Source: Sphingomicrobium sp.
GTDB lineage: Bacteria; Pseudomonadota; Alphaproteobacteria; Sphingomonadales; Sphingomonadaceae
Assembly (NCBI GenBank): GCA_051953395.1
Contig: JBQCIU010000040.1
Span: 25,880 to 89,879 of the forward strand
Reading direction: 5' to 3'
DNA: 64,000 nt
Shown here piece after piece: positions 8,037 through 46,043 of the stretch. Both the position numbers and the translations under genes were made by a program. Numbering within the stretch: position 1 is the first letter of the stretch; each line of letters starts with the position of its first letter. Below the pieces are notes generated by a model, which saw nothing but the letters and a program-made list of their open reading frames with translations, searched no databases and was not told the origin of the DNA.

Positions 8037-8044
8037 TGCCTGTG

Positions 8045-22993: not shown

Positions 22994-24007
22994 TCAGGGC
23001 TCGCGAAAGGCGATTCGCTCGATCGTCCGATTTCCCGCAACGCGGCCAAGCTGAACGAACAGATCGATGGTGGCGGTTACAAAAGCGCGCACGTCGGCAC
23101 GCCCGAGGGCCGTGCCCCCCTGGAGGACCAGTAGCGTCAGTTGTTCGAGGGCCGATTCCGGCGAATCGGCATGGATCGTTGTCATCGAGCCCGGGTGCCC
23201 GGAATTGAGGGCGCGCAGAAACGCGAGGGCCTCCACCCCCCTGAGCTCGCCGAGGATGATTCGATCGGGGCGCATCCGAAGCGATGCCGAGACGAGATCG
23301 TTGGCACTGACCTGCGCCTCGCCGAGGCTGCCCCGGACGGCAATCAGGCCGAGAGCATTGCAATGGCCGATCCGGAGCTCCGGCGTGTCCTCGATGGTAA
23401 TCAACCGCTCCTGCGCCGGAATTTCGCCGATAAGGGCATTCAGGAAGGTCGTCTTGCCGCTTGATGTGCCCCCCGACACCAGGATGTTGAGGCGCTCGCG
23501 CACGGCCTCGGCGAGCGCCGTCGCCATTTGGCCCCGCCGCAGGAGGGAAATTACGGACTCGGGCAAGGGCGGTCTCTGGGCGATCGGTCCGGCCGCGGTC
23601 GCCGAAAAGGCGCCTGCCGCGTCATAATCTTCAAGCGCGAGCTGCGCCGCAACATGCTTTCGGATCGCAAGGGCCGGCCCGTCGAACGTCGCCGGCGGCG
23701 CTATGATCTGGATCCGGGAGCCGTCCGGAAGCACCGCCGAAAGCAAGGGATGCTCGCGGCTGATCCCCTGGTCAGTCAGCGCCGCGACTTGCCGGGCGAG
23801 CCGCATGAGCGTGGTGCCATCGAGCTCTTCCTCTTCACGGCGCTCCGTGCTTCCGCCGATCGTCTCGATCCAGATTTCGCCGGGCCGGTTGACATAAATG
23901 TCGGTCACGTCCGACCGTGCAAGGATCCCGGCGAGCGGGGCGAGGGCGGAGCGCAGATAGACCCCGGGCTCGGAGGCTGTCGCCGCAATCGCCCTGGCGA
24001 GATTCAC
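22994..24007 (-). CDS. virB11: T4SS ATPase VirB11
   Basis: TDIYVNRPGEIWIE, Walker A GGTSSGKTT, ITIEDTPEL, LRMRPDRIILGELRG, GHPGSMTTIHADS. Confidence 0.93.
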   Translation of the reverse strand: MNLARAIAATASEPGVYLRSALAPLAGILARSDVTDIYVNRPGEIWIETIGGSTERREEEELDGTTLMRLARQVAALTDQGISREHPLLSAVLPDGSRIQIIAPPATFDGPALAIRKHVAAQLALEDYDAAGAFSATAAGPIAQRPPLPESVISLLRRGQMATALAEAVRERLNILVSGGTSSGKTTFLNALIGEIPAQERLITIEDTPELRIGHCNALGLIAVRGSLGEAQVSANDLVSASLRMRPDRIILGELRGVEALAFLRALNSGHPGSMTTIHADSPESALEQLTLLVLQGGTALGRADVRAFVTATIDLFVQLGRVAGNRTIERIAFREP

Positions 24008-25104
24008 TCCCTGCTTCCCGAATCCGGAAACTCGAGATCGCGAGCGACGAAGACGCTGATGCTGGTCCCGGCCTTGATCCTGAGCGTCGGAAGGATCCGG
24101 CCGGACTGCGCCGGAACTGCCTGTTGCGGTGCGGAGCCGGGCAACGACAGGATCAGCGAGCCGGACGCAGCCCGCGTGGCGAGAGAGGTGCCGAGATTCG
24201 CCGCCGACCCGACGACAGCGTCCCCGAGCCGAGTCCAGAAATGGCTGTCGACACTCGCCCGAACGCCGCCGCGGCCGACCGTGTCAGTCGCCGGAGAATC
24301 AAGGGCGATGGTGACGCCGTCCGGACGGACAAGCCGGGTCCAGGTGATCGCCGCCCGATTCTGCCCGGCCGCGACCTCGCTTCCATATTGGCCGATGAGC
24401 CTGCTTCCGCGGGGGACCAGCACCTTCTTGCCGTCAAATCCTCGAACGTCACGCGAGACGATCGCTCGCGCGAGGCCGGCGCTTGTCGAATCGAAGGCGG
24501 TTTCAAGCACGGCCGGAATCAACGCGCCCTGCGCCACCGTGTTCGAACGATTGGCGAGCATGCTCGCTCGCGCTCGAGCAGCGGCTTGAGAGCCTGGGCC
24601 GGCGGGCGCCGAACCACTGGCGGCGGCAGGGGCGGACGCCGCGGTCGTGTCGATGATCAGGGCTGGGCCGCTTGACGGCGGTGCAGGCCGGGATGGCACC
24701 GGCATCGGCTGCATCATCGGTCGCTCGTAGATCGCCTGCGGCGGAGCCGCTGGTAACGTTCGCGACTTGGATTGGGAAATTGGCGCCGGAGGAGGAGGCG
24801 GTTCCGCAACCGGCAGGGCCCGGGCCTCCACTTGTGGAGCAGGGGGGATGTAGAGCGGCGGCGGCTCGGGCGAAAAAATTGCACCCTCGCCGCGTGGCCG
24901 GACCGCGGGCTCCGGCTGAGCGCCCCGCTTCGAGTCGAGGAACAGGAACAGCAGGATCGCTGCGCCGAGCATGACCGCGGCGATGATCCAGCCGGACGGA
25001 CCGGTGCCGGGAAGTCGCACCACGGGCTTCACCCCGGACGAGCCAGCCGCCTCCGGCCCGAACAATTGCTGAAGCGGCGGGTCGCCGATGTCGGTGGCGG
25101 GCAT
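24004..25104 (-). CDS. virB10: T4SS core protein VirB10/TrbI
   Basis: TM plus Pro-rich stalk, then QGALIPAVLETAFDS, VLVPRGSRLIGQY, WTRLVRPDG, GRGG...VDSHFW.R. Confidence 0.92.
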   Translation of the reverse strand: MPATDIGDPPLQQLFGPEAAGSSGVKPVVRLPGTGPSGWIIAAVMLGAAILLFLFLDSKRGAQPEPAVRPRGEGAIFSPEPPPLYIPPAPQVEARALPVAEPPPPPAPISQSKSRTLPAAPPQAIYERPMMQPMPVPSRPAPPSSGPALIIDTTAASAPAAASGSAPAGPGSQAAARARASMLANRSNTVAQGALIPAVLETAFDSTSAGLARAIVSRDVRGFDGKKVLVPRGSRLIGQYGSEVAAGQNRAAITWTRLVRPDGVTIALDSPATDTVGRGGVRASVDSHFWTRLGDAVVGSAANLGTSLATRAASGSLILSLPGSAPQQAVPAQSGRILPTLRIKAGTSISVFVARDLEFPDSGSRE

Positions 25105-25811
25105 CAGCGGCTCCTCTTGGGAGCGAGCCGGATGGCTTCCGCGACAAGATCGTCCATCCGGAAAACGAGCTTGGCCGGCACGCCGTCGACCACATAGACG
25201 TCGTCGCGCATCCCGCCATTGGTGAGCATCTCCCGCCCCGCGCGGTTCACCGCGTAGACTGCGGGGATAGGCTTGTCGGCCGACCAGCTGATATAGGTGT
25301 GGGTCCCGTCGTTGCTGACGGAATCCGGCTGCAGCACGCGGTCGCCGCTGATCCTGTAGCGGCTCTGCGCGCGGCGCAGCGGCGAGACGTCCACATAATT
25401 TTCCCCGTCCTGCGCGGCCTCGATTTCCGGGTAGGTGAAGCGGACCGTGTAGGGCGTGTCCGGCATCGGCGACGGCACCGGAAGCAGGTCGAAATTATAC
25501 ACCCGGACGGACGTAATCACCGTCATATTGCTCGGGACAGAGGCATTCGCCTTGATGAACAGATGATCGCCCGAGTGATCGACGCTCACCTGCCAGGCAC
25601 CGCCATCCCCGACCGCGACATTCCGCACCTGCTCATCGGGCGACAGCTCCACGGTCAGCTGATAGCCCGGCGCCGCCTCAAGCTGGACGACCCGGTCGGG
25701 ATCATAAGCGACGCTCTGCAGGTGCGGATCGCCTGGGCCGGGCTGCGGACGCACCTGGCCGAGCGCGGGGGTGGCGGCGAGGATCATCGACGCGATGACC
25801 AGCGGCTTCAT
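25104..25811 (-). CDS. virB9: T4SS core protein VirB9/TrbG
   Basis: Real start MKPLVIAS at 25811 (ATGA overlap with the virB8 stop). DPHLQSVAYDPDRVV, FIKA, NMTVITSVRVYNFDL, VSNDGTHTYI.W. Confidence 0.88.
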   Translation of the reverse strand: MKPLVIASMILAATPALGQVRPQPGPGDPHLQSVAYDPDRVVQLEAAPGYQLTVELSPDEQVRNVAVGDGGAWQVSVDHSGDHLFIKANASVPSNMTVITSVRVYNFDLLPVPSPMPDTPYTVRFTYPEIEAAQDGENYVDVSPLRRAQSRYRISGDRVLQPDSVSNDGTHTYISWSADKPIPAVYAVNRAGREMLTNGGMRDDVYVVDGVPAKLVFRMDDLVAEAIRLAPKRSR

Positions 25812-26593
25812 TGCGAACTTTCCGGCGCGGTCGCGGAGCTGCCTGGCGCGGGAACGGTTGCCGCGGACCCTGGGGCGTTCGGCACTGGTCTCGCTGCCTG
25901 CGGCTCGCCCACCGGCAGAGCTTCCGGGTCGCGGCGGTAGGAGGTGACCTGGAACCCGAGCGGGTTCACGAACCGGTCTTCCAGCTTCATCGGTTCTCCG
26001 GACCAGCGGTACCGGATCGTCGCGATCCATGGTCGAGGCGGCTGCGCCTCTCCGTTCGGGTCGGTCCGAACCGTGTCGAACCGCACCAGCGCGACATCCT
26101 TGCCGACCGGTGAAATGCTCTTCACGCGGGCATCGATTGCGGCGCCTCGGGGAAGCGCGACGAGCGGGCTCTCCGGATTGGAGACCTGCATTCCCGACAG
26201 ATAGGTGCTTCGAGCGCGGTCGACTGAGAACAACGCCACTTTCCGATAGGCGGCATTCACCGTCCCCAGGTCGAACCCCTCCCGGGCGATCACATATTGG
26301 ACGAGGAACGACTGGGTCAGCGCGGTATCCGGAGCGACTTTCGCAGGATCGAGGGGCTTCAGCGCCTGGACATAACCGGTCGTCCGGTCGACCAGCAGGG
26401 TATAAGGCTCGACCGTCTTGAGGGGGGTCAGAAGGAGTAGCGCCCCGGCCTCGAGCACCGCGATCAGGGCCGCTGTTCCGGCCACCCACCAGGCGGCCCG
26501 CTGCGACGAGCGTTGCGCGGAAAGTCGGTCCCGGTTCCAGCTTGCCGATTCGGCATAATAAGCGTCCAGCGATTTCCGGCTCTCGTCATTCAT
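25808..26593 (-). CDS. virB8: T4SS protein VirB8
   Basis: AWWVAG, PLKTVEPYTLLVDRTTG, QYVIAREG, FVNPLGFQVTSYRRD. Confidence 0.92.
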   Translation of the reverse strand: MNDESRKSLDAYYAESASWNRDRLSAQRSSQRAAWWVAGTAALIAVLEAGALLLLTPLKTVEPYTLLVDRTTGYVQALKPLDPAKVAPDTALTQSFLVQYVIAREGFDLGTVNAAYRKVALFSVDRARSTYLSGMQVSNPESPLVALPRGAAIDARVKSISPVGKDVALVRFDTVRTDPNGEAQPPRPWIATIRYRWSGEPMKLEDRFVNPLGFQVTSYRRDPEALPVGEPQAARPVPNAPGSAATVPAPGSSATAPESSQ

Positions 26594-27770
26594 CTCGCAA
26601 AATATCCCGTTTGCCGGCGCTTGCGCTCACGCGCGGCCGGGCTCGTCGGCTGAAGGAGTGCCCCAGTGGTTTGTCGAAACCTGCGGAATGAGCCTGCGAA
26701 GGAGGCGCACCGGCCATGCGCAATGGGCCGGTCACCCCGCGGCTGTTGTCCTCGCGCCTCTGGAGCGACACCAGGATGTCGGCGACCGCGGCAGCCCGAC
26801 TGCGCTCGTCTCCATTGGTGACAAGCGCCTGCTCAGGGCGCTCATACTGATTCCAGTCCACCAGTCGGCGTCCCTCGGCCCCGGCTTGCTGCCAAGGCTG
26901 GGGCAGCCGGAACGCACGCGCCACCCGCATGCAGGCGAACAACACGCCCAGGAGAATCAGGGTGAAGGCGCCGGTGAGGACGAACAGCTCGACAGGCACG
27001 GTCGGGAGGTCTTCGCCGGCCATTCGCCGGGCAAGGATCGCGGCGAGCCAGGGGCCGAGCATCGCCAGTTCGAATCCCAGCGCGATCGAGACTCCCACAG
27101 CTCCGAGTGCCGCCCCGGCAAGCACCCGAACCCAGCCTTCAAACAGGCTGCGAGTGGAGTCGAACATCAGGAAAGCGATGAAGAAAGGGCCGAGGGCGAG
27201 CATCAGGCCTGCCGTGGCTCGAACCCCCCCAAGCCCGGCGACCGCCGTAATCAAATAAAGGATTCTCGACCCTCCGAGCGCAAAGGCGTTGAAGCCTGCA
27301 AAGGGCGGTGGCGGAACATTGTCGGCAATGCCGACGCCGACCCCTACGATCGCCAGCTGCGCGAGGTGAGCGTCGGTGGCGTCGAGGCGCTCGACCAGGG
27401 TTCCATCCGATCCCGGGATTGCCGAGGGACGCCCGATGTCGGCGGTAAGCTGGGCGGGACCGTCGACAACCAAATCGTACACCAGCGTTCGGTAAGCGGG
27501 CCAGCTTGTTGCCAGAGTGAAGACCGCTCCGATCTTGAGCATGGCGATCGCGCCGCCCCGCAGCGTCAGTGAGCGGCCGAGGAGCAGATTATAGCCAATC
27601 AGCGCGATGAAGATCGTCAGGAAGCCGCTCAGCACGAGCGCCAGCGTCGAACCCGGCACGGCCAGTTCGTGCCAAGCATTGGATCCGAGCGCCTGCGCCT
27701 GGCAATCGATGTAATGGGTGGTCGAGCCGATGAACCCTTGAGTCAGCCGCGGACCCGAACAGAAGTCCAT
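26586..27770 (-). CDS. virB6: T4SS protein VirB6/TrbL
   Basis: Polytopic membrane protein between virB4 and virB8. LMLALGPFFIAFLMFDSTRSLFEGW motif. Confidence 0.85.
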   Translation of the reverse strand: MDFCSGPRLTQGFIGSTTHYIDCQAQALGSNAWHELAVPGSTLALVLSGFLTIFIALIGYNLLLGRSLTLRGGAIAMLKIGAVFTLATSWPAYRTLVYDLVVDGPAQLTADIGRPSAIPGSDGTLVERLDATDAHLAQLAIVGVGVGIADNVPPPPFAGFNAFALGGSRILYLITAVAGLGGVRATAGLMLALGPFFIAFLMFDSTRSLFEGWVRVLAGAALGAVGVSIALGFELAMLGPWLAAILARRMAGEDLPTVPVELFVLTGAFTLILLGVLFACMRVARAFRLPQPWQQAGAEGRRLVDWNQYERPEQALVTNGDERSRAAAVADILVSLQRREDNSRGVTGPLRMAGAPPSQAHSAGFDKPLGHSFSRRARPRVSASAGKRDILRDE

Positions 27771-30142
27771 CAAGCGACCTCCAGGAGGCGCGGAAGCCAC
27801 AGCGCCGGATCGTCGCCCGTCTCCAGCCGGATTTCATCGAGCAGCCGGACTGTCCGCTCGCGGCCGGAAAGCACCGTGAGGAGCTCTTTCTCGCCCGACA
27901 GGTTCAGGCGCGCCACGACGCTGTCGTTGCCATGCTTGATAAGAAAGCAATGGGCACTGTCGGGAAGCGTTCGCACGAGGTCGAGCTCGTGCTCGGTCAG
28001 GCCGAACCCATCGATATAATCGGCGGCGGCCGCCTTCGGATTCGACATGAAGATCTGGGTCGCCGACTGCTCGATGACGGCGCTTGCGATCCGGCTTTCG
28101 AGCGCATCGCGCGCGCTTTGCGTTACAAATCCTACGATCCCGTTGCGCTTGCGGATCGTCTTTTCCCAATCCTTGAGGCGAGCAACGAACACCTCGTCGT
28201 CAAGCGCTTTCCAGCCTTCGTCGATGACCAAGATCGCCGGGCTTCCATCGAGCCGCTCCTCGACCCTGTGGAACAGGTACATCATGGCCGGAGTCCGGCT
28301 GGCCGGATCGTCGAGGATCTGGGTCATGTCGAACCCGACCGTGTCGGCGGCGACGTCAGTCAGGTCCCTGTCATTGTCGAACAGCCACGCGCGCTCGCCG
28401 TCGCCCCACCACGGCCTCAAACGCGCCCACAGGTCGGAACCGTGGGGACGATGGCCGCCGCGAAACAGCTCGACGATGTAGCGCAGCCGCTGATGAACGG
28501 ACGGCTGCCGGGCGTTGGCGTCGACCGCGTCCTTGATCCGCGCGAGTTCCTCGGCGTCCACGCCGCCCGCGAGGACGCTCAGCCATTCGATCAGGAATTG
28601 CCGGTGGGCCGGAGTGTCGGGGAGCTGCAGCGGGTTGAGCCCGGATGGAACGCCAGGACGAAGAACGTCGTAGCGGCCGCCGATCGCCCGGACGAACAGT
28701 TCGGCGCCCCGATCCTTGTCGAAGAAGACGATCCGGGGCGCGTACTTGCGGGCTTGCGCCAGCAGGAAATTGAGGACGACCGTCTTGCCCGATCCCGACG
28801 GCCCGATCACCGTGAAATTACCCAAGTCGCGCTGGTGGAAGTTGAAGAAATAGGGTCCCGCTGCGGTCGTCTCCAGGAGCGTCACCGCCTCGCCCCAGTG
28901 ATTGCCGCTCGGGCGCCCAAGAGCAAAATTGTGGCAGCTTGCAAGGCCTGCAAAGTTGCTGGTCGAAACTAGGCCGCGGCGGGCAATATATTTGAAATTG
29001 CCCGGGAACTGCGCCCAGAAAGCGGGCTCAAGGGCGATGTCCTCGCGAACGCTCAGGATCCCGAGATCGGCAAGTGCGGCCTGGGCTTCGGCGCATCCGT
29101 CATTCACCTCCTCGGCCGAGTTGCCGCGTATCGCGATCGTCATGTGATGCTCACCGAACCCGGCGCGGCCGGCGGCGACCTGATCCTTGGCATCGCCGAG
29201 TTCGCCGCGAAGGCTGATCGCTTCGTCTTCGGCCGACCTCATCCGGCGGAGCGCAAGGTTCATCCGCGACAGCGCCGCCTGCCGCTCGACGAAGGCGAAC
29301 GACTGCGACAGAACCATCTCGAAAGGCAGTCGAAGAAGCTCGTCGAGCATGCCGGGCGCGGTCTGCCCCGGATAATCCTTGATCGACACCAATCCCAGGA
29401 ACGACCGGTCCGTCGCGCCGGTCCGGCCGAGCTCCACCAGATCCTCGCCGAAGCTCACGCGCCGATACGGGAGATAGTCGCCGATGTCCTGCATCGGAAG
29501 CAGAACTGGGCGCATCTCCCCGTTGAAAAGGTAGGACAGGAACTCGAGCAGCTCGGAACCGGGTCCCTGCCCTGTCTGGTAGACGCCGAGAAGCCTCGGC
29601 TCATAATTTGCGAGCGATGCAAGGAGGCCGTCGCGCGCCTGTTCAAGCGCCTGCAGCTCGAACCGAGCGCCGATCGGACCGCCGGCCATCGATCGTCCGA
29701 ATCTCTTCTGTAGCCGGTCGAGCGTACCGATGCGGCCCTGGATCGGGCGGCGAACCAGCGTCAGGAACAGGTCGTTGACGTAGAGCTTGCGGGTGGAGAG
29801 GCGCGCCTTCCAAGTCTCGTCGAGCTTGCGCGAGAAACCGTCCGGATAGGGCGAAGTCAGCGCAACGTCCGCCTGTCGACGGACGATGTGGTGGTAAATC
29901 GCGAAGCGCGACGAGCCGATTGACTGCAGCACCGCGTCTCGAAGCCGCTTGCGGTAGTTGAGCTCGTCACTGTCGGCGGTCTCAAACAGCAACCCGCGGA
30001 GCTGGACGATTTGAATCAGCAGGCCGTCGCGAGTCTCGATCGTATGGTCGTCGACATGCCGCGCGTACGGCAGGTGCCTGCCCGCCGATTGCTCGCGCGC
30101 GATGATCTTCGGGTCGTCGGTCAGGCGCGGTAGGAGTTGCAT
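27770..30142 (-). CDS. virB4: T4SS ATPase VirB4
   Basis: Start MQLLPRL at 30142. HLPYARHVDD, Walker A GPSGSGKT, FFDKDRGAE, ILVIDEGW, IRKRNG, FVTQS. Confidence 0.94.
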   Translation of the reverse strand: MQLLPRLTDDPKIIAREQSAGRHLPYARHVDDHTIETRDGLLIQIVQLRGLLFETADSDELNYRKRLRDAVLQSIGSSRFAIYHHIVRRQADVALTSPYPDGFSRKLDETWKARLSTRKLYVNDLFLTLVRRPIQGRIGTLDRLQKRFGRSMAGGPIGARFELQALEQARDGLLASLANYEPRLLGVYQTGQGPGSELLEFLSYLFNGEMRPVLLPMQDIGDYLPYRRVSFGEDLVELGRTGATDRSFLGLVSIKDYPGQTAPGMLDELLRLPFEMVLSQSFAFVERQAALSRMNLALRRMRSAEDEAISLRGELGDAKDQVAAGRAGFGEHHMTIAIRGNSAEEVNDGCAEAQAALADLGILSVREDIALEPAFWAQFPGNFKYIARRGLVSTSNFAGLASCHNFALGRPSGNHWGEAVTLLETTAAGPYFFNFHQRDLGNFTVIGPSGSGKTVVLNFLLAQARKYAPRIVFFDKDRGAELFVRAIGGRYDVLRPGVPSGLNPLQLPDTPAHRQFLIEWLSVLAGGVDAEELARIKDAVDANARQPSVHQRLRYIVELFRGGHRPHGSDLWARLRPWWGDGERAWLFDNDRDLTDVAADTVGFDMTQILDDPASRTPAMMYLFHRVEERLDGSPAILVIDEGWKALDDEVFVARLKDWEKTIRKRNGIVGFVTQSARDALESRIASAVIEQSATQIFMSNPKAAAADYIDGFGLTEHELDLVRTLPDSAHCFLIKHGNDSVVARLNLSGEKELLTVLSGRERTVRLLDEIRLETGDDPALWLPRLLEVA

Positions 30143-30408
30143 CGCCAGACACGAAAATTCTTGACCCGTGGGCAGTTCGCCATGCGGGCGAGCCACAGAT
30201 CGAAAATGCGCGGCTCCTTCAGACACAGCAATACGCCCGCGACATGCACAGCGAGTGCCGCAAGCAGCACCCAGGCGGAACGAAAGATGAGGAACAGCTC
30301 GGTCGAGACGATCAGGTTTGCGACGAAATAGCTGTAGGTCACGCCGGCAAACATCTGCGGCCGAGTCAGCGCGACGAACAGAGGATCTCGCTCGAGCGCG
30401 CCGCTCAT
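30121..30408 (-). CDS. virB3: T4SS protein VirB3
   Basis: DPLFVALTRPQMFAGVTY, two TMs, C-terminal NSYRA. Confidence 0.9.
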   Translation of the reverse strand: MSGALERDPLFVALTRPQMFAGVTYSYFVANLIVSTELFLIFRSAWVLLAALAVHVAGVLLCLKEPRIFDLWLARMANCPRVKNFRVWRCNSYRA

Positions 30409-30731
30409 TGTCCCAGTGTCGCGCTTGAGTGGATTCCGGCGACAATCGAGGAGGCGCCAAACAGAACGAAGCAGCCGATGATGACCGTCACACCATAGCG
30501 CCAGTTGATACGGCCGGTCAGCATCATGAAGCCGACCGTGGCGACAGCAATGATCGCCGCAACCGTTGCAACTGTGCCGAGCAATGTACCCTGCAACCAG
30601 CTCATTGCTGACACGATCGCGTTGGATCCTGCCGGATCAGAATAAGCGTATTGCGCTGCGACAGGATCGGAAAGCACGAGCGTCGAAAACGCCGCTACAA
30701 TTGGCCAGATCGCAATTCTAATGGGATGCAT
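30405..30731 (-). CDS. virB2: T4SS pilin VirB2/TrbC
   Basis: Signal peptide, WLQGTLLGTVATVAAIIAVATVGFMMLTGR...IGCFVLFGA. Confidence 0.88.
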   Translation of the reverse strand: MHPIRIAIWPIVAAFSTLVLSDPVAAQYAYSDPAGSNAIVSAMSWLQGTLLGTVATVAAIIAVATVGFMMLTGRINWRYGVTVIIGCFVLFGASSIVAGIHSSATLGQ

Positions 30732-30881
30732 GGCACCCGTTGTCCCACTGCGATTCGGCACAGCTATCCTGCGTCAGATGCAATGGGTTGCCAACGCCGA
30801 GTCTGGCGAAAATTACTTCCGAAATGGAAGGATTGAGCAGCTAACAGGAATGCCCACCGGCGTTCCTAAAGGGGTCGATCT

Positions 30882-31070
30882 TCACGCCGGCGATGCCAGC
30901 AGTTGCAGCACTTCGACGGCGAACAAACCGAAAAGCGCTCCTCCCAGGAATTCCACTTCTTCGAAAGGTGGTTCTCCCACCCGTCGAATGAGCCTCAAGA
31001 GCATAGTCCCGAAAACCAGAAAATTTGCCCCACCGATCAAACAGGCCAAAGCGGCTAGCGCTAACTTCAT
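30882..31070 (-). CDS. Small two-TM hypothetical protein
   Basis: 62 aa from ATG 31070 with two hydrophobic segments. Confidence 0.45.
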   Translation of the reverse strand: MKLALAALACLIGGANFLVFGTMLLRLIRRVGEPPFEEVEFLGGALFGLFAVEVLQLLASPA

Positions 31071-31231
31071 CGACTCATCTGGACTTGGATCAGCATTCCG
31101 ACGGCCGTGCCATCTTTGTCGCCGCTCGGCGATGGGGTGAAGGGCGCCGCTAGCTAGGGCGCGTTCCTGCCTCACATCACATCGCGAGGCTCCAAACCTC
31201 CGGCAAGCCTGGCACTTAGGGAAGCGCGACA

Positions 31232-31263
31232 ACGGATCTTATGTGAAATGCGGTTCGAGTCCC
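31232..31263 (+). repeat. 32-bp intergenic motif, copy 1
   Basis: ACGGATCTTATGTGAAATGCGGTTCGAGTCCC, 30/32 identical to 32493-32524. Confidence 0.8.
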
Positions 31264-31357
31264 TTGCACATCGGGGTGACGGCGAGAGGGACCGCCCGCT
31301 CCCTTCACGCGCCCGTCGAGCTGGACGACGGAGCCACCTTCGTGTCCAATCAGCAGC

Positions 31358-32434
31358 GTGACCGACGAAAGCGACTACTCTGATGAGTTGCCACTGCCGA
31401 CCGCGCCGGCGTCGATACCCTTCAGCATGCGAAACTTTGCGACCGCGGAGGATGCAAATCGCATAGCCAACCACCTTGCGTCCTGCATCTGCCTTATCAG
31501 TAGGTACGTAGACCTGAGCCGGTTGGACGGGGTGACTGTAGCCTATGACTACGACGCGGCTTTGGCGGAATTGGACCGTGGAGTCGAAGGGCTACGGGCG
31601 CTGAGCCGCTCCAACGACGACCAGCTGATCGGTGTCGGCATGGCGCCCGCCGTAATTCGCGACGGCGTGGTCAAGGTCCACATCGTCCTGAACGGTCCGT
31701 ACGTTGAGGGTATTGATCAGGACGACAGCGGCGAGCCGGGTGAGGAGTTTTCGACCGCTCTCTATCTGCTCGCCCACGAATGCGCTCATGTGCAGGTCAC
31801 CACGGACAAGGATCGCGCCTTCCCCAATACGATCCTGCAGCACCCGATATCCGGCTACGAGGAGGCGATCTTCACGCAGATCAACGAAGCCTGCTGGGAG
31901 GAGTATGCTGCCTGCCGCCTGAGCGCCATCTTTGGGCGTGGCCACCTCACCTATTACGAGGAAGGACTGCGCGGGGTCTTGGGCATCGCGGGCGAGCGCG
32001 CTGCCGAAGGCCGCCAAGCGTTCTGGCAGCACCGTGATCTCAATCGTGCCGTGAGCGAGATCGCCCCGCCTTTGGCCGAGCCGCTGCGGCTGGCCTCTTA
32101 TGTGCTCGGACACATCGATGGGTTGGGCGACGAGACCTCGATCAGCGAACAAACGCGGCAGGCAATTGCAAACGGGGGCTACACCGATTTCATCGAAGGT
32201 TTGGCCGGTGCGCTGCGCGCCTTGTGGGCCGAGCGTTGCAACCTGCGGCACCTCAGCCAGTTCGACGTCATAGGCGATGTGGCGCGCGATGTCTTTTGGT
32301 CTGGCGGGTTGCTGATCCGCCCGGGTCCAGATCAAGGTGCCACGATCCACGTATGGGAGCCGGAGGAGGTCGATCCGGCTGCTTTGGGACTGGAGAGGTT
32401 TTGGAGGATTGACGGCGGCAGCGAAGAGCGCTGA
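31358..32434 (+). CDS. Hypothetical protein with HExxH zinc-metalloprotease motif
   Basis: LLAHECAHVQ followed about 35 aa later by WEEYAA, a zincin/IrrE-like spacing. Acidic cytoplasmic protein. Confidence 0.7.
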   Translation: MTDESDYSDELPLPTAPASIPFSMRNFATAEDANRIANHLASCICLISRYVDLSRLDGVTVAYDYDAALAELDRGVEGLRALSRSNDDQLIGVGMAPAVIRDGVVKVHIVLNGPYVEGIDQDDSGEPGEEFSTALYLLAHECAHVQVTTDKDRAFPNTILQHPISGYEEAIFTQINEACWEEYAACRLSAIFGRGHLTYYEEGLRGVLGIAGERAAEGRQAFWQHRDLNRAVSEIAPPLAEPLRLASYVLGHIDGLGDETSISEQTRQAIANGGYTDFIEGLAGALRALWAERCNLRHLSQFDVIGDVARDVFWSGGLLIRPGPDQGATIHVWEPEEVDPAALGLERFWRIDGGSEER

Positions 32435-32492
32435 TCCGGAGTGAAGGCATTCGTTTGAAATGCTAGGCGACGGATTATCGTCGGCAATTACG

Positions 32493-32524
32493 ACGGATCT
32501 CGTGTGAAATGCGGTTCGAGTCCC
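32493..32524 (+). repeat. 32-bp intergenic motif, copy 2
   Basis: ACGGATCTCGTGTGAAATGCGGTTCGAGTCCC, flanked so that GACGG (32492-32496) can pair with CCGTC (32524-32528). Confidence 0.8.
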
Positions 32525-32638
32525 CGTCCTTTGACCTTGCAGGGCAGGGGTACGATAAGCGACAATGGACGAGTCAGCGTGCCGAGCTGAAACTGACCGA
32601 ACGAATGCGGACAACGTTCGCGTTGTGAGGAGGGTCAC

Positions 32639-32881
32639 ATGGCCTGGTATGTTGATGGCTCGAGCGTCATCGAGGCGACCGGTACCGAGAAAATCTGGAC
32701 GACCGACTACGACCCCGCCGATACTGTTCCCCTGTCGGGGATCTACAAATGTCGGGTCTGCCGGAAGGAGGTAACGTCCAATGAGGGCGATCGCTTTCCA
32801 CCGCAGAACCATCACCAGCATCCGCAACTCGGTGCTGTGAAGTGGCGGCTGTTGGTCTGGACGAACACGACGGGTGAATAG
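32639..32881 (+). CDS. Small zinc-ribbon protein (YjzC-like)
   Basis: P..TVP.SGIYKC..C..EV....G..FPP...H.H...W.L pattern; GAGGG RBS. Confidence 0.68.
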   Translation: MAWYVDGSSVIEATGTEKIWTTDYDPADTVPLSGIYKCRVCRKEVTSNEGDRFPPQNHHQHPQLGAVKWRLLVWTNTTGE

Positions 32882-32922
32882 AATCAGATCCCTGCTCCAT
32901 TGCTGATGTCGGAGACGTTCTG

Positions 32923-34128
32923 ATGCGCGTGTTCACCCGCGAACAGTTCCATGCGCTGGTCTGGTCGAAGCCGATGACCAGCCTCGCGAAGGAGTTCTTC
33001 CTCTCCGACGTCGCGCTTCACAAAATCTGCCGAAAGCATGATGTGCCGACGCCGCCGCCCGGCTGGTGGGCGAAGCAGCAGGCGGGCAGGAAGGTGAAGG
33101 TTACGCCTCTGCCGAAACTGAAGGCCGGCATTTCAGATCGGATCGCGATCGCTGCCGGTGAGCTGCGATCTGAAGCCGGCGCCCTTGCAGCAGTACGCGA
33201 GCGGGCGCGCGTGCTTGCGTCCTGTGACCTGCCGGGCGAGATCACGGCACCGCCTGTCGTGGTGAAAACAGTTTCGGCGCTGCGGAAAGCCAGACCCGGA
33301 GCGACGGGGCTGGTCACGACCGACGGTAGTCTGATCCGCTGCGAAGTTGCTCCGGCGTCGATTGACCGGGTCGAGCCGGCGCTGACCCGGATCGTCGCCG
33401 CGGCCGCGCAGCAGGGCTTCACGCTGAAGCCGCGCGGCAAGGATGTCTGTTTTTCCGGCGCGGACGAGGAGATCGGCTTCTCCGTCACCGAAACAGTACG
33501 ACGCATCAAACACGTGCTGACCGAGCGTGAGCAGGCCGAACAGCAGAGGTGCGAACGCAAACGGGAACGGGAGATCAGATCCGGGAGCTGGGGGATGTCC
33601 TGGTCTGAGCGGCCACGGTTTCCCGAATGGGACTATCACCCGACCGGTCAGCTCGCATTCGAGTTTGAGCACGCGTACGTCTCCGGCGCTCCCCGCCGAA
33701 CCTTTCGTGACGGCAAGGTCCAGCGCGTCGAGGACATGGCGGCAGATATTGCTGTCGGCCTTGCCGTTCTTGCGGCTGCGAAAACGGCCGACCGACTCCA
33801 GCGTGAGGAGCGGCGGAGGCACGAAGAGGAGCAGCGGCGCCTGAGGGAGCAGGCGGCCCGTGCGAGCCATCTCGAGGAGCGTCGGGCAGCTGCGGTTGAT
33901 CAGATTCTTGCTGAGATGCAGCGGGTCGAGCAGCTCACGGCATTGCTCACGCAGCTGTCTGAAAACGCGGGCGGCGGCGATCGCGTTCGCGAGTTCCGTC
34001 TGTGGATCGAAGCCGTGATTGAACGGAGCCGGTCGCGACTTGCATGTCAGGCGCTCGAAGAGCGATTCACCGCCTCACGACTGTTTGGCGACGACGATGA
34101 TTACGGCTTCAGAGCGCCGTATTACTGA
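32923..34128 (+). CDS. Hypothetical island protein with an N-terminal HTH-like region
   Basis: TREQ.H.LVWSKPM..LAKEF.LSDVAL.KICRK..VP.PP.GWWAK N-terminus and a charged coiled-coil C-terminus. Confidence 0.75.
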   Translation: MRVFTREQFHALVWSKPMTSLAKEFFLSDVALHKICRKHDVPTPPPGWWAKQQAGRKVKVTPLPKLKAGISDRIAIAAGELRSEAGALAAVRERARVLASCDLPGEITAPPVVVKTVSALRKARPGATGLVTTDGSLIRCEVAPASIDRVEPALTRIVAAAAQQGFTLKPRGKDVCFSGADEEIGFSVTETVRRIKHVLTEREQAEQQRCERKREREIRSGSWGMSWSERPRFPEWDYHPTGQLAFEFEHAYVSGAPRRTFRDGKVQRVEDMAADIAVGLAVLAAAKTADRLQREERRRHEEEQRRLREQAARASHLEERRAAAVDQILAEMQRVEQLTALLTQLSENAGGGDRVREFRLWIEAVIERSRSRLACQALEERFTASRLFGDDDDYGFRAPYY

Positions 34129-34256
34129 AATGCGAAGTCCTGGTCGGTTACGTTAGGTCTGATGTAACAGGTCTTGCGTATCGGGATGCCGGGCGTCTTC
34201 CCGGCAATTGGTCGATGAAGGCGGTTTCGCTGGTTGTTGCGTAAGAGGGAGCCGGA

Positions 34257-35021
34257 GTGATGCGGAAGAACTGCTGGCAGAGGTCTGCTGAATCTGTGGC
34301 GTTCACGTTGAGCGCGCTTCTTCTGTCGTTCGCGCAGCCGGCATCGGCGCAGACGCAGGCGCAGGTCGACCGGGCGAACCAGATCGCGGAGTACGGCATG
34401 CGCCTCGCGGTTTGCGAACGTCTGGGAATGAAGCTCGCGCCGGATGGTATTGATCGCATGGTCGAGCTTGCGACGCAGGAGGCGGCCACGTGGGGACTGC
34501 CCAAAGGCCAGGCCGACGTCGTGCTGGCGGAGGCGGTCCGGCGGCACGGGCAAATGTTTAAGCTGGATCTCGATGCTGCCGCCGCGAAGGCTGACAGCGA
34601 AGCAGAACTGCGACGGCTCAGTAAGGTGCTCGCCGACCTTGGCCGGGACTGCCCGGCGATGCTTCACGATCCGATCTTCTCGCAGGTCCTCAGCGCTACC
34701 GCGGGCTTTGACCTGCAGTCAGCGGCAAGAGACGCTGCTGACGCCCTGCTCGCCGATGGTGGCTTCGCCTCCTGGCAGACTCCCGATATTCAGGCGCGAG
34801 GCGATCTGATGATGCTGGCCGGGACGTGCCGCCAACAGATCGGTGCCGCCCGGTCAGACGAGATTGTAGCGAAGTACGGCCGCTCGGATGACAGCCGCGA
34901 GCGCGCCTATTACCTTCGCAGTTTCGACACGGGGCTGAGGGATACTGAGCTGAAGTTCACCAGGGCGCAGTGCGATCGGGCGATCCACGCAAACCAGGTG
35001 AAACTTACAGCCAGGCCATAG
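34257..35021 (+). CDS. Hypothetical secreted protein
   Basis: Signal peptide ending PASA; helical protein with paired Cys. Confidence 0.65.
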   Translation: MMRKNCWQRSAESVAFTLSALLLSFAQPASAQTQAQVDRANQIAEYGMRLAVCERLGMKLAPDGIDRMVELATQEAATWGLPKGQADVVLAEAVRRHGQMFKLDLDAAAAKADSEAELRRLSKVLADLGRDCPAMLHDPIFSQVLSATAGFDLQSAARDAADALLADGGFASWQTPDIQARGDLMMLAGTCRQQIGAARSDEIVAKYGRSDDSRERAYYLRSFDTGLRDTELKFTRAQCDRAIHANQVKLTARP

Positions 35022-35327
35022 CGCGCGTGGATGGCTTCAGCCGTACCGGACACGACGATTGGGAGGATCTGCAATCCGCTCTTCCCGGGTCGCTGCAGCT
35101 CGCGGCGGGATCCTATTAACCCTTAAAATACAGTTTGATCGCATAACGCGAACTTGACAGCCGCAGGGCGGGCGGCTCTTGTGTAAAGGCTCGGGGTCAG
35201 GGGGGAATATGAAGCCGCCGAGCTGTTGGCGATCCTTGCTTGTGCATTCGTCCGCGACGGCCAATCGGCCGGTGCTGAGGCGCATCTTTGGAAAGAGCAA
35301 CCCCGGCGAGCCCTGCCAGGATCATTG

Positions 35328-35831
35328 ATGCGCTTTCTCACCAAATTTGCGCTCGCGCTCGTCCTCCCCGCTTTTGTGCCCGCCGAGCCATTCCCGCCGC
35401 TGACGACGCTCACGTATACGGGGCACGCCGCTGTTGTCCCCGAGGGGCTCCAGTTCAAGTGCACCCCGACTGCGGTCTATGACGGCGATGGTCCGGTGTG
35501 GTGCGCCGAGGGCCCGAAGATCCGCATCGCAGGCGTTGCGGCCCGGGAAATGGATGGCACCTGCCGGTCAAACCAGCCTTGCCCGCCGGTGGGAGCGATC
35601 GACGCCCGCGACCGGTTGGTGCAACTCTTCGGCGGCCCGAAAGGCCGGTTGGCGACCGGTCATATCGTTGTCCACTCTGCGGCGATGACCTGTCTTTCCG
35701 AAGGATCGGCCGGTGGATCGCGGACGGCCGCGTGGTGCCGGTCGCCGGTATTCGGTGATCTCTCGTGCGCCGTCCTCCGCGCCGGCGGCGTGCTCAGGTG
35801 GCCCCGCTACTGGCGCGATCACAGGTGCTGA
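35328..35831 (+). CDS. Thermonuclease (SNase)-like protein with a signal-like N-terminus
   Basis: VYDGDG...KIRIAGVAARE, a variant of the SNase DGDT...RL.GIDAPE motif; Cys-rich. Confidence 0.72.
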   Translation: MRFLTKFALALVLPAFVPAEPFPPLTTLTYTGHAAVVPEGLQFKCTPTAVYDGDGPVWCAEGPKIRIAGVAAREMDGTCRSNQPCPPVGAIDARDRLVQLFGGPKGRLATGHIVVHSAAMTCLSEGSAGGSRTAAWCRSPVFGDLSCAVLRAGGVLRWPRYWRDHRC

Positions 35832-38056: not shown

Positions 38057-38059
38057 GTG

Positions 38060-39307
38060 ATGGACGAGCATAAAATTTCCTTCGTGAATCGGCTGCAGGA
38101 ACGGGGTCTTGTCGATCGGTGGGGATTCGCGCTGTTCGCCGGCGCGGGTGCAGCTGGAATTGTAGCCGCAAAATGGCTCGAAGCCCCCGCGCTCTGGGTC
38201 GCCGTCGGCGCCGTGATCGTCATGCTGGCTTACGCAGCATTGATCTCACGCTACGGGTCCGGCCGGCTGCGCTCCGATCAGGCGGGGGATAATTGCTATT
38301 ACCTCGGCCTCATCTACACGCTCGCCAGCCTGGCGTACGCCATCGTCACCTTCGACCCGGCGAACACCGCCACAACCATCGTCCAGGGCTTCGGGATCGC
38401 ATTGGCGACCACGATTGTGGGCCTCGTTCTTCGTGTGGTTTTCAATCAGGGGCGCCCGGATCTTGAAGAGGTCGAAAGCGGCGCCCGGCGTGACCTGCTT
38501 GAGGCCGTTGCACTGCTGAAAACCGAGCTTGGCCAAGCCGTCGTGTCAATGAACGATTTCGGTCGGCAGGTGCGCCAGTCGATCTCCGAAACTCGTGAGG
38601 CCGCGACCTCGGATATCACGAACTTCGCTGAAACCGCCGTCACTGGATTGCGGGAAGTCATGGACGCAGCGAAATCGGCTCTGGAGACCGAGGCGGCTGA
38701 TTTTGCCTCGCGAATCAAGCGACACGGCGCCGCGGTCGACAGGCTGGTTTCCACCCTTGAGGCGCATGGCGCAAATCTCGATCGGCTGGCAACCGCCCAT
38801 GAGCAGGTTGCCGGCACGCTCGAAAATATTGCCGCCGCAGGAGCCGAAGCGAGGGACGCCACGCGGGGATTGGCTGAGCAGGCTGAGGCCGCGTCCTCGG
38901 TACTCGCAACGGTTCGCGAAAGCAGCGATTCTGTCCGACAGTCATCAGATGCCCTCGGCCGCGCAGCATCGGACGTGCGGGAATCAGTGTCGAATTTCGG
39001 CCAGGAAATCAGCGAGCAGCTCCGATCTCTTCGGGTAGCTCCGGGCGCGGCGGTCGCCGAAGCGACGGACGCGCTGGCAAAATCGTCGGCTGCAGTGCGG
39101 GGAGAACTTGAGGCTCTGACGGCGGCACAGCGCAACGCCGCCAGTTCGATAAGCGAGCAGGCAGCAGCCGCGACCGAATCAGTCCGCCGCCACAACGCTG
39201 CAATGGAAGCGGAGCTCAGCCGCTCCCGCGACCTGGTCGAGAAGGTGCACGCAAATCTGGTGGATATGACCAGTGAGCTGGTTCGGCGGGTCGACGGTCA
39301 GCAATAA
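38060..39307 (+). CDS. MotA/TolQ/ExbB-like channel subunit with a long coiled-coil tail (ZorA-like)
   Basis: TM cluster with YYLGLIYTLASL and GFGIALATTIVGL, then about 280 aa of Ala-rich heptad sequence. Confidence 0.75.
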   Translation: MDEHKISFVNRLQERGLVDRWGFALFAGAGAAGIVAAKWLEAPALWVAVGAVIVMLAYAALISRYGSGRLRSDQAGDNCYYLGLIYTLASLAYAIVTFDPANTATTIVQGFGIALATTIVGLVLRVVFNQGRPDLEEVESGARRDLLEAVALLKTELGQAVVSMNDFGRQVRQSISETREAATSDITNFAETAVTGLREVMDAAKSALETEAADFASRIKRHGAAVDRLVSTLEAHGANLDRLATAHEQVAGTLENIAAAGAEARDATRGLAEQAEAASSVLATVRESSDSVRQSSDALGRAASDVRESVSNFGQEISEQLRSLRVAPGAAVAEATDALAKSSAAVRGELEALTAAQRNAASSISEQAAAATESVRRHNAAMEAELSRSRDLVEKVHANLVDMTSELVRRVDGQQ

Positions 39308-40228
39308 ATGGCGCGCTTCGATATCCGACAGGACCGACCGTATCGCCGCGGACTGGTGCTCGGCCTGACCATCGCCGAGATCATGATCCTTCTGATCTTC
39401 CTGTTGCTGATGGCGCTGGCTGCTGCGCTCGCAAATAGAGAAAAGCGCCTCAACGCACTTGAGAACGGGACGGGAAGCCGTCTGGTTGAGGCGATCCAGG
39501 CAGCATATCCGAATGCGGAGAAACCTGACGATTACTACAAGGAACTGGTCCGCGCGATTGAGGCCCGCCAGGCACTGGAGAAGTCCGGCCTGGATTCCGC
39601 CCGCGAGCACCTTGCGGATGATGCCGACCTGGGAAAGCGCGTCCGCGAGGAGGCAGCGAAAGCCGGCGCCGCCGATCCCTGGGATTTTGCAACGAAAGCA
39701 GTCGCAAAAGCGGGCGCAGGAAAGAAGGGGGAATGGCCGCCATTTTTCAGCCTGAGCGAGGCGGGCGGCTATTACTTCGACAGCGGCAAGGCAACGCTTC
39801 GCCCCGAGTTTGAGCGAAACCTTCGCTCGGTGATCATCCCGCTCCTGAAACGCAACATCGATGATTATGGCGTCGATGTTGTCGAGGTGATCGGCCACAC
39901 TGATGAAGTTCCCATGGTCGGCACCTCCAACCTGGACCGCGCGCTTATTCCGGCCTCAGTCAGCCGGATACCGATCGAACAGCTTCACTCGACCGATAAT
40001 GCCGGACTCGCAATCGCGCGCGCAGTTGCTGTGGTCAGAATATTGAGGGCCGACCCGCGGCTTCGCGGTGTGACCATACTTCCGCTTTCCGGCGCGCAGA
40101 TGATCGTGCCCGTTGATCATCCCGCCGATGGAAGTGCGAAGGGCGACGATCAGCGCAGGCGCCGGATTGAAATCCGCTTGCGGCGTTCAACTGAACAGGT
40201 CGCAACTTCGGTGCGGCCGGCGCACTGA
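39308..40228 (+). CDS. MotB/OmpA-like protein (ZorB-like)
   Basis: N-terminal TM LTIAEIMILLIFLLL and a C-terminal OmpA-like domain (FDSGKATL, VEVIGHTD, N..LAIARA..V, RRRIEI). Confidence 0.82.
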   Translation: MARFDIRQDRPYRRGLVLGLTIAEIMILLIFLLLMALAAALANREKRLNALENGTGSRLVEAIQAAYPNAEKPDDYYKELVRAIEARQALEKSGLDSAREHLADDADLGKRVREEAAKAGAADPWDFATKAVAKAGAGKKGEWPPFFSLSEAGGYYFDSGKATLRPEFERNLRSVIIPLLKRNIDDYGVDVVEVIGHTDEVPMVGTSNLDRALIPASVSRIPIEQLHSTDNAGLAIARAVAVVRILRADPRLRGVTILPLSGAQMIVPVDHPADGSAKGDDQRRRRIEIRLRRSTEQVATSVRPAH

Positions 40229-43309: not shown

Positions 43310-43754
43310 GCCCTCGCCGGCCCGCAGCCGCAACATGGCGGCAATCGGACCGAAGGACACGAAGCCCGAGCTCATCGTCAGGAAGCTGCTCCACAGGGCG
43401 GGCTTCCGATTCCGACTTCATCGAAAAGATCTGCCCGGCAAACCGGATCTGACTCTGCCGAAGTGGAACGCGCTCATTGAGGTGCAGGGCTGCTTCTTCC
43501 ACTCGCATGATTGTCACTTCGTCAGGAAGCGGCCTGCCGACAATGCTGAGTTCTGGGCGAAGAAGCTGGATGGGAATGTCGCGCGGGATCGAAAAAATGC
43601 CGAGGCCGCTGCAGCACTGGGGTGGCGCAGACTTGTCGTGTGGCAGTGCGCCCTGACCGGGAAAGCGCGACTTGATCAGACGGACCTGCTTTCCCGGATT
43701 TCCGAATGGCTCCGCGGGAACGACAGGACAGGCGAGATCCGCGGGACGGACTGA
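43302..43754 (+). CDS. vsr: Very short patch repair endonuclease
   Basis: RSRNMAAI..KDTKPE..VRK.LH..GFRFRLH...LPGKPD...GCFFH.H.C. Start uncertain (TTG 43302). Confidence 0.9.
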   Translation: MRKPSPARSRNMAAIGPKDTKPELIVRKLLHRAGFRFRLHRKDLPGKPDLTLPKWNALIEVQGCFFHSHDCHFVRKRPADNAEFWAKKLDGNVARDRKNAEAAAALGWRRLVVWQCALTGKARLDQTDLLSRISEWLRGNDRTGEIRGTD

Positions 43755-43798
43755 CACCGGGATTGCGGCGGAGATGATGGGGCGTCATCGTTCGCTGC

Positions 43799-45629: not shown

Positions 45630-46043
45630 ATGGAAGACCTGGCCCGTCAGATTTCCGCTCTCGAAAAACTGCGTAAGGCTGAGCTGAGGGAGCGATGGAC
45701 GAAGGTCACCGCACGAAGAGCTCCGAGTGTCAGCGCGCCGCTGCTGCGTCTGGCGATCGCGTGGGAGCTGCAGGCGCGCATGTACGGTGGCCTCTCCCGT
45801 CAGACGCAGCAGCGGCTTGAGCAGGTCGCACGCGGGAAGACCCGCACGCGCACCTCAGAACCGGGCATGCGGCTGGTACGCGCCTGGAACGGACGCACGC
45901 ACATTGTCACAGTCGGAGAGGACGGCGTCATCCGCTGGAACGACCGGGAGTGGCGAAGCCTCAGCGAGGTTGCCCGCGCAATCACTGGAACGCGCTGGTC
46001 GGGGCCCGCCTTCTTCGGTCTAAAGCAGAAGCGCGTTGCGTGA
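45630..46043 (+). CDS. DUF2924 family protein
   Basis: AWELQAR.YGGL, PG.RLVR.W.G..H.V.V, SLSEVARAITGTRWSGPAFFGL. Confidence 0.88.
   Translation: MEDLARQISALEKLRKAELRERWTKVTARRAPSVSAPLLRLAIAWELQARMYGGLSRQTQQRLEQVARGKTRTRTSEPGMRLVRAWNGRTHIVTVGEDGVIRWNDREWRSLSEVARAITGTRWSGPAFFGLKQKRVA

Follow-up and report, generated by a model that had tools for sequence, protein, structure and literature searches.

A rare, dispersed motif of about 40 bp heads unrelated accessory genes in soil and rhizosphere sphingomonads and may act as a regulatory element and exchange patch

We analyzed a non-coding motif that occurs twice in a 64,000-nucleotide (nt) stretch of Sphingomicrobium sp. DNA (contig JBQCIU010000040.1, positions 25,880 to 89,879; hereafter the window), where the two copies sit in the cargo region of an island that bears a type IV secretion system (T4SS) in a Sphingomicrobium-like genome. 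An earlier reading of the bare sequence (the original prediction) had pointed to the duplication. The motif is real and dispersed, yet it is rare, low-copy and so far known only from sphingomonads of soil and rhizosphere. It shares the inheritance of its downstream gene and always points the same way as that gene, in several copies apparently close behind the end of the preceding gene. Several independent comparisons show recombination breakpoints clustered at the motif edges. The reading that we favor, tentatively and from sequence comparison, is that the motif may be a DNA-level cis-regulatory 'head' of moron-like modules, which would double as a homology patch for module exchange.

The pattern ACGGATCT(TA/CG)TGTGAAATGCGGTTCGAGTCCC is found exactly at 31232-31263 and 32493-32524 on the plus strand, with a spacing of 1261 bp and 30 of 32 positions identical. 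The 32-nt pattern had no match in 100 dinucleotide shuffles, and the predicted two-copy arrangement is thus borne out. Without gaps the pair extends to 35 nt (31229-31263 and 32490-32524, 32/35 identical), whereas a profile built from eight copies sets the motif at 31226-31263 and 32486-32524. In copies from other metagenomes, the match to copy 1 starts at 31224-31226 and ends at 31262-31267, and these limits indicate that the full unit is ~39-40 nt long. A third copy was not found in the window by a search at Hamming distance up to 8, by the gapped regular expression TGTGAA.{5,9}TTCG..TCC or by nhmmer --max. The two copies are:

31224..31263, plus strand, motif copy 1 in its long form GCGCGACAACGGATCTTATGTGAAATGCGGTTCGAGTCCC, which heads the module of a gene for an HExxH protein
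32486..32524, plus strand, motif copy 2, ..ACGACGGATCTCGTGTGAAATGCGGTTCGAGTCCC, which heads a zinc (Zn)-ribbon gene plus the cluster after it

Alignment of the eight sequenced copies gave the invariant core CAACG..T.T..[A/G]TGTGAA..G.G.TTCG..TCC within the full form GCGCGACAACGGATCTTATGTGAAATGCGGTTCGAGTCC(C). In DNA of 62% GC, the 5' half, ATCTTATGTGAAAT, stands out as AT-rich, and the internal alleles in the alignment look mosaic (GGAT/GTTT/GTAT, TA/CG and GAG/GAA/GGA). The T4SS operon and the first cargo gene are divergent, with copy 1 in the region that separates them, and copy 2 lies between cargo genes one and two. From the end of copy 1 it is 94 nt to the GTG at 31358 and 163 nt to the ATG at 31427, and from the end of copy 2 it is 114 nt to the ATG at 32639, which is preceded by the Shine-Dalgarno sequence GAGGAGGG. 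The predicted distances of ~95-115 bp to the downstream genes therefore hold.

The motif is not private to this genome, a doubt that had been raised with the original prediction: at least eight further copies lie in other rhizosphere and soil contigs, with flanks that are unrelated on both sides. Exact-word scans revealed the motif in a Sphingomicrobium metagenome-assembled genome (MAG; locus L002) and in a contig of the Joint Genome Institute (JGI; locus L017). Among the matches listed, these exact 19/20-mers occurred in 1 other species genome of 185,579 and in 1 JGI metagenome contig, and the remaining exact-word matches were chance matches in coding DNA. Following the proteins led to three more motif-bearing loci, L018, L027 and L028, of which L027 carries two copies (L027a and L027b); L027b, at L027 2631-2668, is a diverged orthologue of copy 2. 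When contigs of other rhizosphere metagenomes were aligned with copy 1, four more carriers appeared (one from X6 and three from X7), all of which match only 31224/6-31262/7 and continue into unrelated sequence at both ends. No copy was found by blastn in 72,556 plasmids, a viral contig collection gave chance matches only, a profile search for further diverged copies found none, and a literature search found no paper containing the sequence. All carriers come from soil or rhizosphere samples, and both identifiable hosts are Sphingomicrobium-like. In run X4, which holds the window sequence at ~5x depth, the motif is on only two contigs, those matching copies 1 and 2, suggesting that it is a low-copy element and is not similar to repetitive extragenic palindromic (REP) sequences; in the L002 population it is present at one locus. 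A repeat of the REP or bacterial interspersed mosaic element type, or a miniature inverted-repeat transposable element, was considered and rejected, given two copies in the window and, by eye, neither terminal inverted repeats nor target site duplications.

L002 also carries a REP-like hairpin, GTCTGCTTTGGGTGGAAAGCGGAC, at ~2642-2668 and in other intergenic places, where it apparently recurs between small genes; the recurrence was deduced from repeated peptide strings (SAFHPLQTF, MSAMGGK) in open reading frame (ORF) translations. One copy of the hairpin lies 20 nt 3' of the L002 motif, and its 3' half, GGAAAGCGGAC, loosely resembles the motif part GTGAAATGCGGTT.

In all copies with readable downstream DNA, the motif is followed after 63-163 nt by the start of a same-strand gene. 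Cataloguing the downstream genes, as had been proposed, showed that four mutually unrelated families are headed in this way, namely the HExxH protein, the 80-amino-acid (aa) Zn-ribbon protein, a 59-aa ORF (L027) and a 139-aa ORF (L002). The preceding gene apparently ends 0-60 nt 5' of the motif in copy 2, L002, L017 and L027a, and the short left flanks of two X7 contigs (X7b and X7c), in which no ORF could be read, have TAA triplets at a similar distance. The motif is thus joined to at least 4 unrelated downstream genes and to more than 6 unrelated upstream sequences, with a constant orientation to the next gene. The layout motif-HExxH-motif-small gene-401-aa gene is kept in L027, where the small gene and both motifs differ. 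The motif is missing upstream of more distant relatives of the HExxH gene (75-79% identity) and of the Zn-ribbon gene (70-81% identity), suggesting that it is not a leader specific to either gene.

A narrow distribution of this kind (one species genome and one JGI contig among the matches listed, with no plasmid or viral contig) could be the mark of a relic, that is, a young and functionless piece of ancestral intergenic DNA that hitch-hiked by recombination among related islands. The shared habitat of the carriers, the Sphingomicrobium-like nature of both identifiable hosts and the drift of the L027 copies are in keeping with such an origin. However, the unrelated genes and upstream sequences that the motif joins in constant orientation speak against a relic, as does the invariant core, which is kept in the most diverged copies while the adjacent bases are scrambled, and we consider this explanation quite unlikely.

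A BLAST comparison of the window with the related loci defined the limits of homology around the motif. Homology with L017 starts at window position 31228, that with L028 covers 31225-32459, that with L027 covers 31228-32459 (93.5%) and then 32922-34076 (81.6%), and that with L018 covers 32497-35816 (81.8%). No further than 3 nt from the left edge of the motif, the HExxH module (31225/8-32459, 93.5% identical) therefore borders on left-hand contexts of three unrelated kinds: in the window this is the T4SS side, L017 and L027 have a Tle1-like gene there, and L028 has a different sequence. Between L017 and L028, the upstream sequences are unrelated, the motif has 0/35 differences and the downstream sequence has 3/236 differences, indicating that the motif travels with the downstream gene. 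Between L017 and L027, identity is 85% upstream (61/415 differences) and 98% downstream (4/236), with 8/36 differences in the motif, indicating that the ancestry switches at the right edge of the motif. Copy 2 and its orthologous copy in L018 share 24 of 26 motif bases, after which the next 12 nt are scrambled and the leader is ~80% identical. In L018, an IS6-family (DDE_Tnp_IS240) transposase element at 63-825 replaces the left part of the motif; the element end, which we take to be the inverted repeat of the insertion sequence (IS), lies 2 nt from CTTATG (...TTTGACAGTGCC, then AT, then CTTATGTG). The assembly graph of runs X8 and X9 splits within the motif at L002 2705-2734, after ...GTGAAATGCG. 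One branch completes the motif and leads into the 139-aa gene, and the other holds CCAGAATGTCACTGG..., the alternative continuation being CCAGAATGTCACTGGTAGCGCAGTCAGCGC; the branch depths are 14.1 and 12.8 in X8, and the alternative sequence is absent from all loci retrieved.

Breakpoints are not all at the motif: the 3' end of the HExxH module (32459) lies off it, ~30 nt before copy 2. In the contigs of X1-X4 that hold the locus, which drop rare variants, we found no deletion joint, circle joint or empty site. Moreover, the edges alone do not prove site-specific cutting, because crossovers within pre-existing motifs give the same edges. The proposal of a recombination site that delimits cassettes thus stands as far as the breakpoints at the motif edges go, but not in the off-motif module end, the missing excision joint or the comparisons with known sites given below. 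Directly 5' of copy 2, at 32453-32490, short words of the motif are present in permuted order (tttGAAATGCtaggCGACGGATtatcg). They coincide with the end of the L027 and L028 homology (32459), and could be a trace of older recombination in a motif copy, or chance.

Two classes of known recombination site were compared with the motif. Predicted dif sites of sphingomonads have the XerD arm TTATGTTAAAT (PMC3025954 supplement). The motif sequence TTATGTGAAAT is 10/11 identical to this arm and lies in an 11-6-11 layout. With a position weight matrix built from 44 predicted dif sites, and with 60 shuffles of the 64 kb as control, TTATGTGAAAT scored 18.2 bits as a XerD arm, the top score of the window, against a shuffle maximum of 17.8 bits, and the arm of copy 2 scored 3.8 bits. 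A dif or pdif site was nevertheless rejected, given a XerC arm at -4.3 to -15 bits and a 28-mer at 8.5 bits, as compared with 23.4-52.5 bits for the training sites and up to 11.7 bits in shuffles. Conservation also extends 13 nt past the XerD-like arm. An integron attC site was rejected as well, as GTTCGAG and CGACAAC break the RYYYAAC/GTTRRRY cores at 2 positions each and no such integrase is present among the scanned ORFs.

We weighed these results for a dedicated, non-integron att-like site, an asymmetric ~40-bp sequence at which a recombinase would insert and excise circles of motif plus gene and so form motif-gene arrays. The direct repeats flanking a 1.26-kb single-gene unit, a layout that recurs in L027, would fit such a site, and so would the boundaries of shared sequence that are sharp on both sides in at least eight contexts, the population fork inside the motif (X8, X9), the mosaic-looking alleles and the XerD arm of TTATGTGAAAT above the shuffle maximum. 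Asymmetric sites are used by the R64 shufflon recombinase Rci. On the other hand, the motif has no dyad symmetry, its XerC arm is negative, its 28-mer falls below the shuffle maximum, the XerD arm of copy 2 is poor and integron R''/R' cores are absent. The off-motif end of the HExxH module at 32459 and the lack of a deletion or circle joint in contigs of four metagenomes also count against it. Furthermore, no tyrosine recombinase adjoins any copy, and the two large serine recombinases of the window are at least 13 kb off. We therefore hold a dedicated site to be a doubtful, if serious, alternative. That the motif is the attachment site of an undescribed non-integron cassette system, which would move accessory and defense genes as small circles between Sphingomonadales islands and the cargo regions of integrative and conjugative elements by way of an asymmetric ~40-bp site with one half similar to a XerD arm, appears unlikely; the recombinase of such a system would be a host Xer enzyme or one yet to be identified.

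The original prediction had also described a T-loop-like element without a full tRNA, and this description is accurate. The motif contains the T-loop-like GGTTCGAGTCC; ARAGORN finds only a tRNA-Ser (59544-59633) in the window, and cmscan of 31000-32800 gave no tRNA (RF00005) or transfer-messenger RNA (tmRNA) match even at E <= 10. In 7 of 8 copies, TTCGRRT with its GG/CC flanks agrees with the consensus of tRNA T-loops. The would-be T-stem has just the pairs G53-C61 and G52-C62 before a C·C mismatch interrupts it, and canonical numbering from the T-loop places C33 or G33 instead of U33, with no anticodon stem. The T-loop-like GGTTCGAGTCC, the location of the island beside tRNA-Ser and a GCCA in L002 at the expected tRNA 3' end would be in keeping with a degenerate remnant of the 3' part of a tRNA or tmRNA gene, left as an att scar of tRNA-integrating elements. 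This explanation is largely refuted and extremely improbable: beyond the failed searches and the missing U33 and anticodon stem, the 20-mer was in no tRNA gene of the 185,579 species genomes among the matches listed, only one of the 8 copies has the CCA, and the motif is unlike the neighboring tRNA-Ser, whose 3' end is not repeated in the window (a 25-nt search).

Nor did a small structured RNA or leader, as had been suggested, find support. The motif folds no better than shuffles on both strands (z = -0.33 to +1.13), RNAalifold on six copies gave -1.49 kcal/mol with 0/9 pairs compensatory, and no Rfam 15 family match overlaps the motif at E <= 10, three sub-threshold matches in the region lying off the motif. 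The words of the proposed closing stems (CAA.GGA/TCC.TTG; GACGG/CCGTC) do exist, in different registers, but neither folding nor covariation supports them. A hand-drawn hairpin, GGA(U)CUYR...YGAGUCC, with closing stems is broken in L002, L018 and L027a/b and has no energetic support. An ATG in the motif opens an ORF (MRFES...) that ends on, or 10 nt before, the next start codon in copy 1, copy 2 and L002. As a leader peptide or a means of translational coupling this ORF was rejected, since it stops after 10 codons in L017 and after 20 in L018 and has no ATG in L027a/b. A reverse-strand ORF conserved across the motif copies was not found either.

A signal in the 5' leader that acts at the RNA level could be an unstructured or T-loop-containing site for an RNA-binding protein, for an RNase that would punctuate the transcript between modules or for a trans-acting small RNA, or a recruitment site for a NusG paralogue similar to ops/JUMPstart. 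The fixed orientation in a likely co-directional transcript, between a stop codon and the next start codon, would suit such a signal. The fit of TTCGRRT and GG/CC to the T-loop consensus in 7/8 copies, and a size and placement that recall the 39-bp JUMPstart, point in the same direction. Conserved structure, covariation and an Rfam match are all missing, however, the T-stem amounts to 2 base pairs and a C·C mismatch, no sequence of at least 11 nt complementary to the motif is present elsewhere in the window, GCGGT is the sole stretch in common with ops, and no NusG/KOW protein is present among the scanned island ORFs. We judge a signal of this type to be very unlikely.

The favored reading, a cis-regulatory head that doubles as an exchange patch, places the function of the motif in the DNA. 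The motif would be a low-copy, lineage-restricted element of ~36-40 bp that forms the 5' head of self-contained accessory modules in Sphingomicrobium islands, and would serve as a shared transcription-control sequence (promoter/operator) for a factor yet to be identified. The constant orientation and distance, the inheritance with the next gene and the AT-rich 5' half suggest such a cis-acting expression signal. A near-identical stretch of 26-40 nt on many modules would in addition provide a patch where modules swap, insert or drop out, which would explain that both flanks are unrelated between copies. RecA-dependent exchange in E. coli requires near identity over roughly this length (~26-40 nt) at the least.

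Several results weigh against this reading. The orthologues at 70-79% identity that have no motif suggest that it is dispensable for those genes. In a scan of 30400-35500 with the E. coli consensus, from which host-specific promoters may differ, sigma-70 sites numbered 0 as compared with 1.0 expected in shuffles. By eye there is a weak match of the sigma-32 type, TGTGAA-N13-CCCC(T/G)T (the E. coli consensus is CTTGAA-N13-14-CCCCAT), which is not significant given the readings tried. None of the RNA runs searched contained the locus of any carrier, and no candidate regulator was identified among the window proteins scanned. Finally, left junctions that lie no more than 3 nt apart in three contexts are sharper than promoter selection by itself gives, and recipient loci must therefore already have carried the motif. 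The predicted shared promoter or operator is thus compatible with position and orientation but lacks a sigma-70 consensus. Other candidates were examined by eye, and none of CRP-like TGTGA-N6-TCACA, the alphaproteobacterial LexA box, EcfG or other extracytoplasmic function (ECF) sigma sites, sigma-54 sites, the DnaA box and IHF sites fits all copies. A hybrid promoter to which the inverted repeat of the IS6-family element in L018 would contribute was rejected because of unsuitable spacing.

The features next to the two copies, in the order in which they follow copy 1, are:

31264..31426, plus strand, leader and 5' region of the HExxH gene, whose start is uncertain (GTG 31358 or ATG 31427)
31358..32434, plus strand, gene of the HExxH protein (HECAH motif), phrog_11743, function unknown
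32435..32459, plus strand, last 25 nt of the HExxH module, where L027 and L028 homology stops, off the motif
32525..32638, plus strand, leader of the Zn-ribbon gene, with its Shine-Dalgarno sequence at the end
32639..32881, plus strand, gene of the 80-aa CxxC zinc-ribbon-like protein, phrog_15514, function unknown
32923..34128, plus strand, 401-aa gene, function unknown, which opens the part of the cluster common to L018 (81.8%) and L027 (81.6%)

HExxH orthologues are called as 335 aa, from the equivalent of ATG 31427, and the HExxH leader is 94-99% identical in L017, L027 and L028. The HExxH protein had no match in Pfam, PADLOC or PDB sequences. Its AlphaFold2 (AF2) model (pLDDT 90.5, pTM 0.90) gave nothing significant against PDB folds in Foldseek (best E-value 0.38), and as modeled the protein may have an undescribed fold with invariant H117, E118 and H121. 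The family (phrog_11743; homologues P0001-P0120) comprises at least 248 proteins across Alphaproteobacteria and other mobile contexts, and its neighbors in other loci include PRTase-CE/MC2/CTD6, HEPN-NTase, integrase islands and a gene with an Xre-type helix-turn-helix (HTH). The cluster headed by copy 2 ends in a Zorya-like pair at 38057-40228 on the plus strand, a ZorA-like protein of the MotA/ExbB type (PADLOC E = 2.8e-10) and a ZorB-like protein with an OmpA domain. The upstream genes of the cluster (80, 401, 253, ~170, ~470-510 and 272 aa) matched no PADLOC model, and the homologue in L018 carries AAA_21/AAA_15. From its gene content, the copy-2 cluster may be an unusual Zorya-like defense locus.

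The region from ~17.6 to 59.5 kb looks, from its sequence, like an integrative conjugative island beside tRNA-Ser, and the chromosomal genes at the window ends cluster at >=90% identity with Sphingomicrobium MAG proteins. Its main features are:

17788-19740 and 45950-47725, plus strand, two large serine recombinases
22994-30761, minus strand, virB-type T4SS (VirB11-like, TrbI, CagX, TrbL/VirB6, VirB4)
plus strand, cargo run (HExxH, 80-aa Zn-ribbon, 401, 253, ~170, ~470-510 and 272-aa proteins, ZorA/ZorB-like)
42074-45142, plus strand, complete-looking restriction-modification unit (HTH-fused C5 cytosine methylase (m5C), Vsr, MvaI/BcnI-family endonuclease)
59544-59633, minus strand, tRNA-Ser (ARAGORN)

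VirB3 and TrbC/VirB2 are known from gene calls on the matching contigs L003/L004. The island also encodes an OLD-family nuclease, ThiF/TCAD9 proteins and a RES-domain protein. Just outside the island, at 15363-17536 on the minus strand, lie a BlaR1-like M56 peptidase and a BlaI/Penicillinase_R repressor, and upstream of this pair, at 17560-17610, is a tandem palindrome, GCTACAAATGTAGC, which looks like the operator of this repressor. At 5179-8740 on the plus strand, a very long ORF region contains dozens of 33-nt (11-aa) repeats of the type N-x-S-x-V-x-Q-x-G-x-x-N, in direct-repeat families (D1-D7) of up to 23 copies; these repeats recall those of curlin (CsgA/CsgB).

Module shuffling of defense and accessory genes in islands is known, and the sequences at which exchange takes place are seldom pinned down; here there is a defined 40-bp junction marker. 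The motif offers a profile for cataloguing module boundaries in Sphingomonadales, a short candidate promoter/operator sequence and a simple two-copy recombination substrate. If it is a true cassette site, it would represent a second, integron-independent way to assemble gene arrays; if it is a shared promoter and homology patch only, it would be an ordinary but clean example of moron movement. Its general impact is limited either way, because the distribution is narrow.

Several described systems resemble the motif in part. XerCD sites (dif, plasmid cer/psi, Acinetobacter pdif) share the order site-gene module-site and the 11-6-11 layout, but differ in the XerC arm, the whole-site score, the arm of copy 2 and the extra 13 nt of conservation. 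In pdif modules the sites alternate in orientation, whereas the motif copies are direct repeats. In integron arrays, too, promoter-proximal single-gene units alternate with a non-coding site that recurs, and a given gene is found in different arrays. Unlike attC, however, the motif lacks RYYYAAC/GTTRRRY cores, an imperfect palindrome of 57-141 nt and an accompanying intI gene, and it moves with the downstream gene whereas attC moves with the upstream gene. JUMPstart/ops is a 39-bp element in the leaders of horizontally acquired operons that recruits RfaH. The motif is similar in being ~39 bp long, non-coding and asymmetric, in its place in the 5' leader of accessory operons and in its unrelated flanks, but it has only GCGGT in common with ops, and no NusG/RfaH paralogue was detected in the island. 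The boxes of the SetCD and AcaCD activators, which integrative and conjugative elements have in common with the islands under their control, are also conserved sequences of ~20-40 bp before several operons on mobile elements and unrelated islands; in contrast, both motif copies in this island precede cargo genes and none precedes the T4SS operon, and no FlhDC-like activator was seen. Phage morons and the linkers of mosaic modules share with the motif single accessory genes that behave as independent units amid unrelated neighbors, conserved non-coding sequence at the junctions and differing ancestry on either side, and the HExxH, Zn-ribbon and 201-aa proteins belong to PHROG families found in phages. 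Classical morons have a recognizable sigma-70 promoter and terminator, whereas the motif has neither in recognizable form, and the element that hosts the motif is a T4SS-bearing island and not a phage. Taken together, no described family fits the motif; pdif modules and integron cassettes resemble the motif arrays in layout only, and the closest systems in both function and layout are moron-type modules with conserved boundary sequences.

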